A DNA stretch of 64,000 bases. It comes from Octopus sinensis (taxonomy: Eukaryota). This document shows positions 46,252 through 59,300 of the stretch, piece by piece. A model generated the notes under the pieces. It did no database searches. It was not told where the DNA came from and saw nothing but the letters and a program-made list of their open reading frames with translations. Both the position numbers and the translations under genes were made by a program. The stretch is from positions 184,326,001 to 184,390,000 of the forward strand of contig NC_042998.1 of the NCBI RefSeq assembly GCF_006345805.1. The letters run 5' to 3'. The stretch's first letter is position 1. Every line of letters begins with the position of its first letter.

Positions 46252-46614
46252 TAGAGATAAAACCACTATTAGGCAAATCAAACAGTGAAGAACATAAAAA
46301 TAATTTATATAATATACAAAATATATAAAGTATAAAATTTAAAAATTTATATATATATATATATACACACACAGAGACTAGGTGAGAGCTAGACATGCTC
46401 AGTATGGAAAACATGTAGTAGTACTCAAATAAATTTTAGCTTAAAATCCAAATTCTTCATCCATGATTAGGTCCATGGCGTCAAGAGTGGCTATAAGAGA
46501 AATCCAAAATGATTTGATATGGTGGTAGTAATGCAAACAAACGCCATTAGGCTTCACTCACAAGTGCAGGTGTGGCTGTATGGTAAGTAGTTTGCTTCTG
46601 ACCACATGGCTGTG

Positions 46615-47820
46615 TTTATGCTGGTGCTTCTGCTAGGGCTGCAGCCATTGTTGTTGTTGGCATTATAACCAATGCCGGTGGCACGTAAGAGAACCATCCA
46701 AACGTGGCCGTTGCCAGTGCCACCCCGACTGGCCTCCATGCTGGTGGCACATAAAAAAAGCACCATCCGATTGTGGCCGTTGCCAGCCTCGTCTGGCACA
46801 TAAAAAGCACCCACTACACTCACGGAGTGGTTGGCATTAGGAAGGGCATCCAGCTGTAGAAACACTGCCAGATCAGACTGGGCCTGGTGCAGCATTCTGG
46901 CTTCCCAGACCCCAGTTGAACCGTCCAACCCATGCTAGCATGGAAAACGGACGTTAAACGACAATGATGATGATGATGATGTTGGCATTGGATCTGTTTC
47001 TGCTGCTACTATAGTGGGTGTCAAGTCTGCTAGTGTGGACACTGTCAGGTCTGCTACTGGTAAGGCTGGTATTGTTGTCATTGGTGCTGCTATTGTTGAG
47101 GTTGCTAATGTGTCCACTGTGGCGATGGTGGTGGTGGTGTTGGCTCTGTTCTCGTGATTATGGCTACTGTTCTGCCGGTGGTATTGGCAGGGTTCGCTAG
47201 TACTTCAGCTTGATAGATGACCCCTTTGGTTTTGCAACGGCCTCCTACTGGGCAACTATTGCAGTTCCTGCATGAACAACCTGCCTTTCCCTGAGGCTTA
47301 GGGGTGCTAACGAGGATGCTCTTAACATTGGGATCACAGTTAGACGAGACAGTAACATTGTACCTACTGAAAATGGGCCCGTATGTATGGGAGCTAATGA
47401 AGTGCTTGTCTACTAATTTAAGGAATAGTCTACCTGTGGGCGTTATGGGTGAAGGGGGCACAAACCAAATTGCATTTCTGTGACACTTCCTTCTGCAGCT
47501 GTGGGGTTCCAGAATATAGGAGATGCAGTCCCTAAACCCGATGGTAGCTAGGGCCTCCTTATAGTACAGGGCCACTGTGTCGAAGACCTCTTGGTTTGAG
47601 GAAAAGCTCGAAATCTTCTTACTAACACCCTTTAACAGGTTCTTGGACGTGATGGGTGGATGACAGGAGGCTGTGTTGATGCACGTTAGCCTCTCGTTTG
47701 GTTAACAGTAGGGTCTGGAGCCCAAGAAGAGCATGATGTCTAGGAAGTCTGCTGTTGTAAGGTTGGTCTCTATGGTGATCTTCAATCTGATGGCAATCGT
47801 GCTGATTAAGCCTTCACAAT
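46615..47820 (-). mobile_element. Penelope-like (Naiad-type) element, inverted 5' part: RT end/thumb, Cys linker, GIY half
   Basis: LKITIETNLTTADFLD, SCHPP, RNAIWFVPP, CSCRNCNSCPVGGRC, GVIYQAEV. Confidence 0.85.
46674..46980 (+). mobile_element. RTE 3'-tail copy nested in the Penelope-like element
   Basis: Shared tail with (GAT)n. Confidence 0.9.
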
Positions 47821-47824
47821 GCAT

Positions 47825-48046
47825 TACCTATTTCTTTATTACCCACAAGGGGCCAAACACAGAGGGGACAAACAAGGACAGACATAGGTATTAAGTCGAT
47901 TACATCGACCCCAGTGCGTAACTGGTACTTAATTTATTGACCCCGAAAGGATGAAAGGCAAAGTCGACCTCGGCGGAATTTGAACTCACAACGTAACGCA
48001 TAAGCATTTTGCCCGGCGTGCTAACGTTTCTGCCAGCTCACCGCCT
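47825..48046 (-). mobile_element. tRNA-derived SINE (family C)
   Basis: Minus-strand head aggcggtgagctggcagaa...gagttcaaattccgcc; body gcctttcatcctttcgggg. Confidence 0.85.
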
Positions 48047-48798
48047 TAAATTTGCATTACTAATGCCACCTTACACGCACCATCTCCAACAACAGCAGCA
48101 GCAACAACATCAGTAACAACAGGTGCAGCACTAGCAACACATGCAGCGGTGATAACATTACCAATACCACCACCACCTCCAGCATCATCAGCAACAACAA
48201 CACCATCAACGACGGCAGCAACAACAGATGCAACAGCAATAGGTGCAGTGCCATCAATTATGTGCTCTTGGAAATACGTTGGATGTACTGGGAAGTCTCT
48301 CAAGCAACACATTTCCAACCATAATCCTCCTTCAGGGTCCCAGAAAAGAGATATGTAACCTTGCTAACCAGTCATGTCTGGCAACTAAGAGACGGTGGAA
48401 TCCCACACTCAATCTCATGGGAAATCCTTGAAAACCTAGGCTCCTACATCAACGGGATGAAGCAATGCAAGTTATCCACGGCTGAATGCGCAAGAATCCT
48501 AAAAGACTCACTCAAGCCAGGGAACATCCTTAACTCCAGAAATTTTAGGGCCATGTTTGCATTTTGGGATATTCCAGCTAGTGTTTTGGAATCCGCAAAA
48601 TGGCTGCACAGCTGGAAGTTGATAGTCAATGGCAAAGAGAGATAATCCCCATGTTTATATTCATAACGAGGCCTTTCCCGCTTCATATTTTGAAGAGGTC
48701 TTAGGCTAACAGGTTTTGGGGTCTGATGATATGCCATAAAGTTGAATCCTTTATGGACAGGAACCCAGGGTAATTCCATAAACTGGACTTCCCCAGTA
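48047..48798 (+). mobile_element. Penelope-like element 3' part: YIG half of the GIY-YIG endonuclease plus 3' repeat region
   Basis: KYVGCTGKSLKQHISNH, HVWQLRD...ISWEIL, CKLSTAE, NILNSR. Confidence 0.85.
48711..48784 (+). ncRNA. Degenerate type I hammerhead ribozyme-like motif
   Basis: CTGATGA, ccataaag/ctttatgg stem II, GGAAC (GAAAC variant), short stem III, GTA, stem I tggggt/attcca. Confidence 0.55.
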
Positions 48799-48820
48799 AT
48801 ATATATATATATATATATAT

Positions 48821-49552
48821 ATATATTACCTTTTGTATCAGTCATTAGACTGCGACCATGCTAGGGCTCAGTCTTGAGGAATCTTTGGTGGAATGAATTG
48901 ACCCCAGCACTTTTTTCTTTAGACCTATATATATATATATAAACTTAGGTATGTGGTAAAGCAAATTTTTGCTGAACCCTAATTATTAAGTATTACTTAA
49001 GTTTACCGTGAAATGGTCCTTTTTTCATGCCGAATTCTACTTGGTGAAATTATTGATTACTTCTTAATTAATTAATTTTACCCTTTGTTATTATTGATAT
49101 ATATATAGGCCGTTCGCCAGCCTCGTCTTGCACCTGTGTCGGTGGTACATAAAAAACACCATCCGAGCATGGCCATCTGCCAGCCTCGTCTGGCACCTGT
49201 GTCGGTAGCACATAAAAAACACCATCCGAGCGTGGCCGTCTGCCAGCCTCGTCTGGCACCTGTGTCGGTGGCACATAAAATCACCCACTACACTCTCGGA
49301 GTGGTTGGCGTTAGGAAGGGTATCCAGCTGTAGAAACACTGCCAGATCTGACTCACCTGGTGCAGCCTTCGGGCTTGCCAGACCCCAGTTGAACCGTCCA
49401 ACCCATGCTAGCATGGAAAGCGGACGTTAAACGATGATCATGATGATGATGATATATTACCTTTTGTTTCAGTCATTAGACTGCGACCATGCTGGGGCAC
49501 ACTCTTGAGAATCTTTGGTGGAATGAATGACCTCAGCACTTTTTTCTTTAGA

Positions 49553-49612
<60 letters not shown>

Positions 49613-49974
49613 TCGGTATGTGGTAAAGCAAATCTTTGCTGAACCTTAATTATTAAGTATTACTTAAGTTTACCGTGAAATGGTCCTTTTTTCATGCCGA
49701 ATTCTACTTGGTGAAATTATTGATTACTTCTTAATTAATTAATTTTACCCTTTGTTATTATTGATATATATATATATATATATATATATAGTGGCACATA
49801 AAATCACCCACTACACTCTCGGAGTGGTTGGCATTAGGAAGGGCATCCAGCTGTAGAAACACTGCCAGATCTGACTGGCCTGGTGCAGCCTTCGGGCTCC
49901 CCAGACCCCAGTTGAACCGTCCAACCCATGCTAGCATGGAAAGCGGACGTTAAATGATGATGATGATGATGATG
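48821..49974. repeat. Local tandem duplication (period 631 bp) of SINE fragment, unique block and RTE tail
   Basis: Near-identical blocks start at 48821 and 49452; (TA)n length differs between them. Confidence 0.85.
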
Positions 49975-50234
49975 AGAACAAGTACCAGGCTTATATATAT
50001 ATATATATAGAACAAGTTATCAATCTATCTATCTTTATTTATACTTTATTTAAAGCATATTACTCTACCACTGGTATTTGAGTACTCTTTTTTCCACCTT
50101 GTTTCACATTTATGTGTTTACTCCGGTATCTTTATTTATATATATATCGATGTGTGTGTGCCTTCAAGGTGGTACTCTATTATAATTTCCTTTTTATATT
50201 TAAGAATCATCCACTGTGTTATTATCACTAATAT

Positions 50235-52935
50235 CATCATCATCGTTTAACGTCCGCTTTCCATGCTAGCATGGGTTGGACGGTTCAACTGGGGTCTGGG
50301 AAGCCCGAAGGCTGCACCAGGCCAGTCAGATGTGGCAGTGTTTCTACAGCTGGATGCCCTTCCTAACGCCAACCACTCCGAGAGTGTAGTGGGTGATTTT
50401 ATGTGCCACCGACACAGGTGCCAGACGAGGCTGGCAGACGGCCACGCTCGGATGGTTTTTTTATGTGCCACCGACACAGGTGCCAGACGAGGCTGGCAGA
50501 CGGCCACGCTCGGATGGTGTTTTTTTATGTGCCACCGACACAGGTGCCAGACGAGGCTGGCAGACGGCCACGCTCGGATGGTGTTTTTTATGTGCCACCG
50601 ACACAGGTGCCAGACGAGGCTGGCAGACGGCCACGCTCGGATGGTGTTTTCTTATGTGTCACCGACACAGGTGCTAGACGAGGCTGGCGGACGGCCACGC
50701 TCGGATGGTGTTTGTTACGTGCCCTCAGCACGGAGGCCAGTCATTGCGGTACTGGCTACGGTCACGTTCGGATGGTTTTCTTATGTGCCACCGGCACTGG
50801 TACCACAAGGATACAAATTCCATTGATGTTCATCTATTTTGATTTGGTTCGATTTGATTTGATACGATTCGATTCGATTCTCACTTGCCTCAACAGGTCT
50901 TCACAAGTGTCACAAGAAGGAAGGTATGCACAGGTGGACTGACTACGTCCCAGGTAGGGGCCACGGATTATGGCTTCACTAGTCTTGCCGGGTCTTCTCA
51001 CGCACAGCATACTTCCATAGGTCTCGGTCTCTAGTCATTTCCATGGTGAGACCTAACGTCCGAAGGTCGTGCTTCACCACCTCGTCCCAGGTTTTCCTGG
51101 GTCTACCTCTTCCACGGGTTCCCTCAACTGCTAGGGATTGGCACTTTCTCACACACCTCTCTTCATCCATTCTCGCCACATGACCATACCAGCGCAATCG
51201 TCTCTCTTGCACACAACAACTGATGCTTCTTAGGTACAACATTTCTCTCAAGGTACTAACGCTCTGTCGAGTAAGTACACTGACATTACACATCCATCGG
51301 AGCATACTGGCTTCGTTCCTCACGAGCTTACGCATGTCCTCAGCAGTCACGGCCCATGTTTCACTGCCATGTAGCATAGCTGTTCGTACACATGCATCAT
51401 ACAGTCTGCCTTTTACTCTGAGCGAGAGGCCTTTAGTCACCAGCAGAGGTAAGAGCTCCCTAAACTTTGCCCAGGCTATTCTTATTCTAGCAGTTACACT
51501 TTCAGCGCACCCACCCCCACTACTGACTTGGTCACCTAGATAGCGGAAACTATCAACTACTTCTAGTTTTTTCCCCCCGGAAAGTGACAGAAGTTGTTTT
51601 CTGCAGATTTTCGGAGGTCAGTGCTCCAGAGCACCTGCCACATACAAAACTATCTTCCCAGTTAGCCTACCTTTGACATTGCTGCACCTCTTATGTGTCC
51701 ATAGCTTACACTGGGTACATCTTATAGAGTTTCTACCTACACCTTTTCTACAGATCGAACAGGGCCATCTTCCTGATGATATTTGTGGGTTTTCTACCTT
51801 TCTACTTATTAGTACTTTGGTTTTAGCTAGGTTGACTCTAAGGCCCCTCGATTCTAAACCCTCCTTCCACACCTGGAACTTCTCCTCCAGTTCTGATAGT
51901 GACTCAGCGATTAGAGCGAGGTCGTCAGCATAGAGGAGCTCCCAGGGGCAACCGGTCTTGAATTCCTCCGTTATTGCCTGGAGGACTATGATAAATAGGA
52001 GGGGGCTGAGTACTGAACCCTGGTGGACCCCAACCTCTACTTTGAATTCTTCTGTGTACATGTTGCCAACTCTAACCTTACTTACGGCATCTCTGTACAT
52101 GGCTTGCACAGCCCTCACCAGCCATTCATCTATCCCTAGTTTCCTCATTGACCACCAGATGAGGGATCGGGGGACCCTATCAAAGGCTTTCTCCATGTCA
52201 ACAAAAGCCAGGTACAGGGGCTTATCCTTGGCTAGGTATTTCTCCTGCAGCTGCCTTACCAGGAATATAGCATCAGTGGTGCTTTTCCCTGGGACAAACC
52301 CAAACTGCATCTCATCTAAACTAACTCTCTCTCTAATTAGTTGGGCTAAGACCCTCTCCGTAACCTTCATTACCTGATCCAACAGCTTGATACCTCTGTA
52401 ATTATTTGTATCCAGGGCATCACCTTTACCTTTGTAGCAGTTGACTAGTATGCTGCTACACACCAGTCATTGGGTATGACTCCTTCGTGTATCACCTGGT
52501 TGACTATACGGGTGACTAGGTTATAGCCGACACTGCCAGATATTTTGAGCATCTCTGCAGTAATTCCTGATGGGCCTGGGGCTTTCCCTGTCTTCATGCT
52601 CCTAACTGCCTTAGCTACTACGGAACTATCAACTCGGATAGCTGGTCCCTCTGTTGGGTCAACATTTGGCAGACTCTCTTTATCCCATTCATTTTCTTTA
52701 TTCAGCAAACTTTCATAGTGGCATCTCCAAACCTCTCTCTTTGCATCCTCATTTAGCGCAAGTGAACCATCATCCATGCGAACACACTTCTCTCCTACCA
52801 CATCACGATTCTCTCTCACACACTGTCTTGCAACACGAAATACCTCAAGTCTTTCATCCTCACGGCTCAGAACATTGGCAAATTTTTTCTTATCCGCTTC
52901 CCCTCTGGCTATATAAACCTGTCTCCTAGCTTCCC
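50235..52935 (-). mobile_element. Young 5'-truncated RTE LINE (2.7 kb) with RT, Cys-rich domain, repeat-containing 3'UTR and 7-bp TSD
   Basis: Long ORF pieces separated by a few frameshifts, with LYADD; ctaatat at 50228-50234 and 52936-52942. Confidence 0.95.
50401..50716. repeat. Five tandem units of about 63 bp in the RTE 3'UTR
   Basis: Units start at 50401, 50463, 50527, 50590 and 50654. Confidence 0.9.
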
Positions 52936-53197
52936 CTAATATGAATATGAAAATATGTCTGTCTTTTAAATATATATCAGGCACCAACACAATCTCATTT
53001 CAAGGTACCTACTTAACAAGCAAGTACAACTCTGAAACAAATTTTTGCTTCAGACAATCTAAAACACTAAATTAAAACGAAATCCAGAGGACAGTTGAAA
53101 AAAGCACATTTTCTAGCTAATCATTGAATTCCTCCACGAAATTCTTAACAACTATGTACAGTTGTAGCATTTTAAAGTAACTATTTCATGAATTTAT

Positions 53198-53760: not shown

Positions 53761-53843
53761 CTCGTTTAATATCGCAGATCTTTTTAGAGGTACGTGGATA
53801 TATATATATATATACATTTGTCAATTTGAATTGATTTAAAAAT

Positions 53844-54572
53844 ATGGAAAAACCCGTGGAAGCTCATGCTGAGGTTGACTCTGTTGAGGTGAACTCAAGA
53901 AAACGGAAAAAACCTCTAGACAGCGATGTTGAAATGAAAGATTGCACCACTAACGAAGATTCGGTAGATATATCACCGCCAAAGAAACCACAGTATCCTC
54001 CGATATCAGCAGCTTCCGCAACTGGTAAATCGGAAAGGCGTAAAATTCCAGTTCCCGCACATAGATATACACCTCTTAAGGAAAACTGGTTGAAAATTTA
54101 CACTCCTGTAGTTGAACAACTGAAATTACAAGTACGATTCAATATAAAGACGAGAAATGTAGAACTGCGTACTTGTAAAAGCACCACAGAAATTGGAGCA
54201 CTACAGAGAGGAGCGGATTTCGTACGTGCGTTTACTCTCGGTTTCGACATCGACGATTCTTTAGCCTTACTTCGTCTGGAAGAACTTTATTTGGAAACGT
54301 TCGATGTTACCGACGTGAAACCTTTGAAAGGAGATCACTTAGGTCGTGCTGTTGGTCGGCTGGCTGGCCGGAACGGCAAAACTAAATTTACCATCGAGAA
54401 TGTTACCAAGACGAGGATTGTTTTAGCTGATACGAAAATTCATTTGTTAGGTTCTTTTCAGAATATCAAAACTGCACGAAGAGCTATTTGTAATTTGATT
54501 TTGGGTAGTCCACCCTCAAAAATATACGGTAAGTTACGCACTATAGCGTCACGAACATCTGAAAGTTTCTAA
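53844..54572 (+). CDS. PNO1: RNA-binding protein PNO1/Dim2 (KH domains; pre-40S biogenesis), intronless CDS
   Basis: RKIPVPAHRYTPLKENW, DVKPLKGDHLGRAVGRLAG, TKFTIENVTKTRIVLAD, ILGSPPSKIYG; intact 242-aa ORF. Confidence 0.97.
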   Translation: MEKPVEAHAEVDSVEVNSRKRKKPLDSDVEMKDCTTNEDSVDISPPKKPQYPPISAASATGKSERRKIPVPAHRYTPLKENWLKIYTPVVEQLKLQVRFNIKTRNVELRTCKSTTEIGALQRGADFVRAFTLGFDIDDSLALLRLEELYLETFDVTDVKPLKGDHLGRAVGRLAGRNGKTKFTIENVTKTRIVLADTKIHLLGSFQNIKTARRAICNLILGSPPSKIYGKLRTIASRTSESF

Positions 54573-56722: not shown

Positions 56723-57431
56723 ATACGAGTATATCGGTCCCGGTGCGCGCAATTCGAAAACTTAAGCTATGTTAAACAAACAAATTACAATTTTCTCAAG
56801 AAAGCCAAAGAAAAGTGTTTTATTTTGGCACATTCTACTTGTATACGAAGTTTAAAAGTGACTAGAAATTGTGTTGACATGTGCCGTTCAAAGGAAAAAA
56901 AACCTGCCATTCTTTCAATGCCTCGTTGAACTCCGACCCTAGAAGCATTTAATTGATGACAGTGTTCATGTTGTAAAATTTGCAACATTGAATTAGTGTA
57001 TTTAACTATTCTCTTTATCTTGATGTTTCTTTTCCTATTTCAGAATATCACCTTATGTTGACCCACAAGAAACTTCTTCATTCAGATGTGCCTTTCATAT
57101 TTTTACATCGTTTCATCAACTAAAGCAAGATGACATGATTTATCAGCAGCATTCATCAATACATCAAAATTTATATGAATACAATATTTTTCTTGTCTTC
57201 ACTGTTTGGAATGTAGAGGAAGTGATTGCCTTACAGGTTAATTAAGGTGGGATAACTTTACAAACGAGTTGACGATTTTCTATCAGCTCATTTAGATATT
57301 ATGATCACAGATGGAAGAAAGATAGCTGCAAATTCTTTTCTAGAAAGAGTGGCAGAACTGAAAACAAAGATGTTTATAGAGATGAAGGAAACATTATTAT
57401 TGTGATATGTATAATAAATTATTCTTTCACA

Positions 57432-59300
<1,869 letters not shown>

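Follow-up and report, generated by a model that had tools for sequence, protein, structure and literature searches.

A rearranged Penelope-like element of Octopus sinensis and the Asn/Ser/Thr-rich insert between the GIY and YIG motifs of its Hydra-clade family

Layout of the locus

The window analysed here is a stretch of 64,000 nucleotides of Octopus sinensis DNA (NC_042998.1, positions 184,326,001 to 184,390,000 of the forward strand). It contains a Penelope-like element that consists of two arms pointing away from each other (Table 1). Six-frame reading confirmed the layout described in an earlier note made from the letters of the sequence, with the reverse transcriptase (RT) thumb, a CxC linker and the motif VIYQAEV on the minus strand, and KYVG followed by the rest of a GIY-YIG nuclease on the plus strand. 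The left arm is cut on its 3' side inside an insert that separates the two nuclease motifs, and this insert resumes past a nested repeat at 46667-46613 (-). The linker of the window copy has the form CSC-x5-C-x5-C. The right arm had been placed from 48047 onwards; it actually starts at approximately 47810, upstream of a nested SINE-like repeat, since this repeat inserted about 15 nt inside the arm. Independent insertions of the same SINE-like repeat were found nested in L072, L088, L095 and L100. The right arm stops at the natural 3' end of the family, at 48798, on (TA)n. Its KYVG motif lies at 48272-48283 (+), and the C-terminal half of the nuclease that it opens is decayed in this copy and crosses two frameshifts. 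Over both arms approximately 520 nt (about 173 codons) of insert are retained, in close agreement with the 150-170 codons estimated beforehand.

The left junction at 46612 is bridged by a contig of X18 (46567-46694), a run under another organism label, and is thus not an assembly artefact; an X15 contig spans it too, with a short side of 29 nt. The junction is real and old, and the window locus is a dead, rearranged copy.

Table 1. Coordinates of the Penelope-like element, its nested and flanking repeats, and neighbouring features in the window
Feature	Position	Strand	Basis or remark
5' head of a repeat that we take to be SINE-like	46566..46612	+	broken at the end point of the left arm; TGG common to both
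Left arm, 5'-truncated: RT end, thumb, linker, GIY strand, first insert part	46613..47814	-	own sequence
Nested tail of a high-copy repeat (putative RTE of the earlier note), (ATG)n end	46668..46979	+	read depth; further copies at 49268, 49791 and 50223
First part of Asn/Ser/Thr-rich insert	46980..47200	-	frameshifts near 47170 and 47119
GIY strand VIYQAEV	47201..47221	-	six-frame reading, structure model; Tyr codon 47215-47213
Hydra-type linker CxC-x5-C(-x5-C)	47234..47278	-	six-frame reading; reads CSCRNCNSCPVGGRC
RT end and thumb	47809-47290	-	six-frame reading
Head-to-head junction	47810..47814	.	about 5 nt (GCCTT/AAGGC) assignable to either arm
Right arm, 5'-truncated: insert end, YIG strand, nuclease remainder, 3' UTR	47810..48798	+	own sequence
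Nested SINE-like repeat	47828..48052	.	8-nt target duplication TGCATTAC at 47820-47827 and 48053-48060
Last part of insert	48061..48271	+	frameshift just before KYVG
YIG strand (KYVG) and C-terminal half of nuclease	48272..48630	+	H, E, N, CxxC and CxH positions
Predicted type I hammerhead motif in 3' UTR	48714..48782	+	GAAA core damaged in window copy
(TA)n target tract	48799..48823	.	own sequence
Local tandem duplication, just right of the Penelope element	48821-49107 and 49452-49774		approximately 630-670 nt
Long LINE copy	50220-53000	-	RVT_1 (E 3e-32); tail matches the repeat nested at 46668-46979
PNO1-like KH protein	53835-54569	+	uninterrupted 245-codon frame; PF22891, E 1e-41
C2H2 zinc-finger array	57273-58076	+

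Copies elsewhere and clade assignment

Both arms have dozens of copies in the genome, at 71-82% identity for the left and 71-84% for the right arm, and the locus on C19 is the first-ranked match to the left arm as well as the joint second to the right. RT, insert and nuclease are colinear at other loci. Among 60 wide loci examined, the GIY-side anchor was found in 44 and both anchors were placed in 23; every one of these 23 carries a long spacer (389-1981 nt including nested repeats). The other 21 of the 44 loci are cut short, have an anchor that was not placed, or are members of sister families. That the two halves belong to one element family, as the earlier note had proposed, was borne out: both arms fall into one Penelope-like family whose copies are colinear elsewhere, all both-anchor copies have the insert, and copies in a single frame are present. 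Copies devoid of the insert, or halves from different families, were looked for in this set and neither was encountered.

The family has spread to at least 150 loci. Its copies are a median 87% identical to a pooled majority sequence, with no fully intact copy among them. A distance of 0.12 is given as approximately 33 million years in PMC13282606; the age of the family may be in the order of tens of millions of years, which is an upper estimate because subfamilies were pooled. A protein from O. bimaculoides (P0001) places the family in that species. At three loci (L063, L098, L110) an internal deletion has brought the insert next to the nuclease or the 3' UTR, possibly representing non-autonomous derivatives or single events.

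The earlier note took the element for a Naiad. Naiads are defined by an N-terminal nuclease and the absence of a hammerhead, and they have CCHH and DKA motifs and, in some subclades, in-frame UGA/selenocysteine, while Hydra elements are defined by a C-terminal nuclease, CxCX5C, RWK, DKT, CxxC/CxH, a hammerhead and (TA)n targets (PMC8557442). In the colinear copies RT lies upstream of the nuclease, and this C-terminal nuclease comes with a CxCX5C linker; together with the hammerhead this is the opposite of the Naiad definition. As to CCHH, no Cys pair is present within the GIY-YIG core of the family majority, and DKA was found in none of 9 copies, 4 of which have DKT and 7 xKT. RWK is present in 4 of the 6 decayed copies that reach this position. 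The six residues of CxxC, CxH and the catalytic E and N are each kept in 48-53 of 58 copies. The hammerhead core CUGANGA was detected in 28 of 44 3' ends, with 89.9% of cells paired; covariation is weak (score reached by 24 of 500 shuffles), one stem III pair being CG/UA-switched in 7 copies. A strict pattern recovered both cores in 6 of the 44 ends, which is an undercount because the pattern allowed one stem III form. Rfam missed the hammerhead and returned two chance hits, and ARAGORN reported no tRNA. The idea of a conserved in-frame UGA with SECIS found no support, as TGA is absent from the majority frames of the family and Rfam gave nothing credible; recurrent TGA (3-9 copies) occurs solely at TGG, CGA, TGT, AGA and CAG codons. 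On these sequence features, the family is assigned to the Hydra clade of Penelope-like elements and not to Naiads.

The closest described relative is similar in organization: like the family, Hydra-1_Obim has a single ORF running from RT over the CxCX5C linker to a C-terminal GIY-YIG nuclease, and it shares with the family and with the Hydra clade RWK, DKT, CxxC and CxH, the absence of CCHH, a 3' hammerhead and (TA)n targets (PMC8557442). A further likeness to the clade is the inverted 5'-truncated copy at the 5' end (PMC8557442). The GIY-YIG loop of Hydra-1_Obim is itself slightly long and S/N/T-rich. The insert family is distinct from Hydra-1_Obim, because its hammerhead sequence differs from the one listed in the same source. 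Loop length separates them as well, with 130-300 residues in the insert family versus 25 in Obim-like copies and 8-19 in other homologues. To Naiads the family is similar in the Cys-rich motif upstream of GIY-YIG, the (TA)n preference and the presence in octopus (PMC8557442).

For a tree, the loop was removed and the thumb, the linker and the core of the nuclease were used (73 rows, of which 30 are genomic copies and 43 are homologues, without published Hydra references). The family was monophyletic in this tree (96), and its sister group (100) comprised Hydra-1_Obim-like copies and the second-insert family, with L067 placed within it; L059 stood in for Hydra-1_Obim, to which it was matched by eye comparison.

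The insert and the nuclease that carries it

In GIY-YIG domains the two defining motifs are about 10-15 residues apart. Of 219 proteins examined, 169 matched the linker-GIY-YIG pattern and had spacers of 8-19 residues, in a survey that is biased against inserts because the queries were insert-free; the other 50 fell outside the pattern. Among the latter, P0157, a Hydra-type nuclease from a public collection, has approximately 75 acidic residues in the GIY-YIG loop. None of 7893 candidates was a longer insert-bearing protein, which is weak evidence. Within the O. sinensis genome we found spacers of 16 residues (L061), 17 residues (a young Hydra family), 25 S/N/T-rich residues (Obim-like) and 130-300 residues (the insert family). 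The young family (L051-L058) has intact 717-codon frames and many head-to-head pairs; the hammerhead core of L052 reads CCGAAGA. In a second Hydra family of the octopus (L161-L170, e.g. L163 and L167; 40 loci scored), the same GIY-YIG loop holds about 160-195 residues of Thr/Asp-rich insert. Of 10 copies 6 could be measured, and 4 of these have the insert in frame, at 483-594 nt; the family retains the catalytic positions. The inserts of the two families are unrelated and their compositions differ. The second-insert family is also found at G000:C5:63376149-63376509, and its insert has internal repeats. Another Hydra-like family was noticed at L099:255-1220 (-) and L079:4570-5934 (+); L099 has a long Asn-rich stretch upstream of the CxC linker, placed as in rotifer Pen2a. 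Two Hydra-type Penelope proteins, P0049 and P0065, are annotated as Gammaproteobacteria MAG genes and are likely animal contamination.

The insert had been described as Thr/Pro/Ala-rich and mucin-like. This turned out to be a reading in the neighbouring frame, reached via frameshifts near 47170 and 48260: on the plus arm of the window one frame gives T27/P16/A27%, whereas the frame used by intact copies gives N27/S22/T16%. Across the family the insert is built from ANY codons (A at 68% of first positions, pyrimidine at 89% of third positions) and is composed of 22% Asn, 22% Ser and 13% Thr. In 20 of 21 test copies this phase matches the GIY frame where the insert begins, and in 15 of 21 it matches the YIG frame where the insert ends. 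Translated length was 120-288 residues in 14 copies without nested repeats and varies from about 130 to about 300 residues among subfamilies; L129 represents an in-frame short form of 87 residues. One open frame runs through the insert without a stop in L070 and L082, a single frame crosses it with no stop inside the insert in L105, L129 and L151, and insert and nuclease of P0001 share one frame. As judged from these translations, the insert is shown to occur throughout the family and to share its phase with both motifs, while its length differs from one subfamily to another. Per kb, the insert has 3.0 frame switches, compared with 2.6 for the nuclease and 3.6 for the RT; a density in the insert no higher than in the nuclease and RT fits decay after insertion, as would be expected.

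This continuity bears on the possibility that the insert is an intron, which genomic copies would have kept and which would be removed when the mRNA is spliced. Intron retention is known from Penelope-like elements (PMC3846280), and a GT, as part of a Val codon, follows the GIY motif in most copies. We nevertheless regard an intron as very improbable: no fixed AG or pyrimidine tract precedes the YIG codons over 23 copies (L076 and L108 are without AG), codon phase connects both motifs in frame, and 2858 codons contain 7 stops.

An in-frame insert is by itself no proof of selection, because trinucleotide slippage preserves the frame on its own. Shared variants inside the insert displayed no synonymous excess over singletons (5:13 versus 74:275 synonymous to non-synonymous, p=0.56; 20 copies, mostly of one subfamily, low power), and on these counts the insert shows no amino-acid constraint. 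Together with lengths ranging from 87 to about 300 residues and a composition that differs between the two octopus families, this argues against a selected functional module acting in phase separation, glycosylation, or RNA or protein binding. We hold such a module to be unlikely, even though five subfamilies have retained the insert and the corresponding loop of a second family holds a long but unrelated one.

The nuclease gave a different picture. Majority frames are open and retain Y, G, R, H, E, N, CxxC and CxH. In 58 nuclease halves, the ratio of synonymous to non-synonymous variants was 31:204 for singletons and 37:15 for variants present in at least 10 copies; the corresponding values for RT were 92:341 and 31:17. 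Controls at the same frequency of at least 10 copies gave 2:8 (3' UTR) and 5:47 (off-frame reading), and the 3' UTR control also shifted to synonymous at middle frequencies (11:16, p=0.02). Nuclease differences fixed between five tree-defined subfamilies amounted to 33:12, were conservative and spared all catalytic residues; these counts are not independent because one subfamily was the reference for all. Each of the five subfamilies has insert-bearing members, the insert having been checked for in part of the nuclease halves, and counts were made on extant copies with individual branches taken together. The catalytic Arg is kept in 24 of 58 copies and was replaced mostly by C and H, as expected if its CpG codon decayed. 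The variant counts show purifying selection on nuclease and RT across the insert-bearing subfamilies. Such selection shows that the nuclease domain mattered, which is not the same as DNA cutting; the family likely stayed active with the insert.

A structural model was consistent with an insert-bearing core. The AlphaFold2 model of L129, made with an X at its one stop and with a short insert (87 residues), placed the two strands at 36-46 and 125-136, with pLDDT above 90 in the core and 39-55 in the insert. Compared by VIA-align, it matched I-TevI with Z 8.8 and rmsd 2.3 over 88 of 92 residues, spanning the insert, followed by T4 EndoII (7.3) and UvrC (5.4). The predicted fold, a GIY-YIG core around a disordered loop, speaks for compatibility and not for activity, and the strand pairing is partly built into the model because the alignment was dominated by insert-free homologues. 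Foldseek with this model returned nothing at E<=0.001, and a PDB sequence search gave 0 matches. Pfam recognized nothing in the window pieces, the young 708-residue ORF or L129, which is uninformative because Pfam does not cover the clade. A protein alignment that put the GIY strand of homologues inside the insert was discarded.

We consider it quite probable, from sequence comparison and modelling, that the element belongs to an old Hydra-clade family with an in-frame Asn/Ser/Thr insert between the GIY and YIG strands of a likely active enzyme. The insert is predicted to loop out as a disordered tail. The starting point of the loop may have been a short S/N/T-rich seed resembling the 25 residues found in the sister family, which slippage and the duplication of ANY codons then lengthened; this growth would have been tolerated rather than selected, because ANY codons keep the frame and have no stop within one step. 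Many copies end, or have an internal deletion, within the insert. If the insert had instead killed the nuclease, the family would have moved with the nuclease of another family or at pre-existing breaks. Related insert-free families are present in the genome and, as far as the examined copies show, the family is now extinct, both of which would agree with a dead enzyme. We think this improbable, since the subfamily majorities do not differ at any catalytic residue, most of the fixed changes are synonymous or conservative, sampled 3' ends lie at TA-rich targets, and the second long-insert family keeps its catalytic positions.

Long in-frame Asn-rich inserts are described for Pen2a, Pen3 and Pen4 of the rotifer Adineta vaga (PMC3846280). 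The likeness extends to low complexity, repeated origin at AAY-rich seeds and inversions involving the insert. However, the rotifer inserts lie between domains (RT and nuclease, or RT core and thumb), whereas the octopus insert splits the catalytic hairpin; those of Pen3 and Pen4 have 460-554 residues with 25-30% Asn, compared with 22% Asn in octopus; and the rotifer families are very-low-copy (PMC3846280), in contrast to the at least 150 loci of the octopus family, for which selection was seen. Terminon-associated nucleases also have large unique insertions in a Penelope-type nuclease, but the GIY-to-YIG spacing is short in the rows of Fig. S2 that were compared, and the long insertions lie elsewhere (PMC8557442). 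The literature searched, including PMC13282606 and bioRxiv 10.64898/2026.07.22.740005, yielded no account of a Penelope nuclease with an insert inside it; Repbase or Dfam may hold the family. The trait of the family is real and well supported by sequence, and it brings together what is known from Hydra elements and from Asn-rich inserts of Penelope families.

Origin of the inverted layout and implications

In L1 twin priming, a reverse-complemented 5' part becomes joined to a 3' part, and a little sequence is lost where the inversion begins. The window copy, for which the earlier note had suggested this mechanism, has the same geometry but lacks a target duplication and poly(A). These elements normally have a 5'-truncated copy in inverted orientation at their 5' end (PMC8557442), and head-to-head pairs in which both 3' ends are complete are routine for Penelope-like elements. 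Sixteen head-to-head loci of the family were compared: in 12, each arm extends to the natural 3' end; of the remaining ones, L076 is unclassified, L078 has an arm ending in the nuclease, and one arm of L101 and of the window copy stops within the insert. A further eight copies show a cut or an internal deletion that starts within the insert. No target-site duplication surrounds the whole window insertion: its left flank is the broken SINE-like head, which elsewhere in the genome runs approximately 115 nt further into a TA-rich tract, and its right flank is (TA)n followed by a different repeat. The left end of the window copy has a microhomology of 3 nt (TGG) and the inner junction one of about 5 nt, which repair deletion would predict as well.

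We favour, as a fairly probable course of events, a head-to-head arrangement with later deletion in one arm. The copy would have inserted as a usual head-to-head pair with 5'-truncated arms into the TA tract of the SINE-like repeat, and a subsequent deletion at the 3-nt microhomology would have removed the end of the left arm together with most of that repeat. One observation counts against deletion: the window arms are nearly complementary, lying 65-112 nt apart on 7 of 10 relatives, and by a rough estimate a random deletion would leave such a gap in perhaps 1 in 3-8 cases.

This part of the twin-priming proposal stood, and the near-complementarity of the arms would be natural if one RNA had been used with two primers, the second target strand being primed in the A/C-rich insert so that the 5' part became inverted. 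The TGG match and the 5 nt at the inner junction would fit too. In work with a purified Penelope-like protein, both strands were cut and extended, and synthesis also began at an internal site, an AC-rich stem-loop (PMC11167929); rotifer Pen3 shows permuted inverted halves (PMC3846280). The part that did not stand concerns the target: a duplication is missing, and the break in the SINE-like repeat coincides to the base with the end of the arm. Target DNA would have to be lost, in the amount of at least 115 nt, because the remainder of the SINE-like repeat is absent from the right flank. Moreover, the 12 complete pairs speak against such priming, the arms of L101, where one arm likewise stops within the insert, are not complementary, and the two papers with the term twin priming among those listed for Penelope name Penelope just once each. 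We therefore regard a twin-priming-like origin as possible but not likely; the reading at the level of the family would be the same.

Beyond deletion at this locus, we tentatively raise a broader and rather doubtful idea, namely that the catalytic hairpin of octopus Hydra elements is a recurrent expansion site, with two independent disordered inserts of 130-300 residues between the catalytic strands carried by autonomous families for millions of years, and that the insert RNA serves as an internal priming site. If this were true, the A/C-rich insert RNA would yield twin-primed inversions such as the window copy.

Nucleases split in this way risk being annotated as low-complexity host proteins, as with P0001 ('DDB_G0287625-like'), or the elements being overlooked as nuclease-less. 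The GIY-YIG loop is marked as a tolerant insertion site, which may be of use for tagging or fusing Penelope-like proteins, one of which works in vitro (PMC11167929). The graded series within one genome (16, 17, 25, 87 and 130-300 residues) lends itself to the study of insert growth. Finally, the family would extend the phenomenon of rotifer Asn-rich inserts from inter-domain linkers into a catalytic domain, and to a second phylum.
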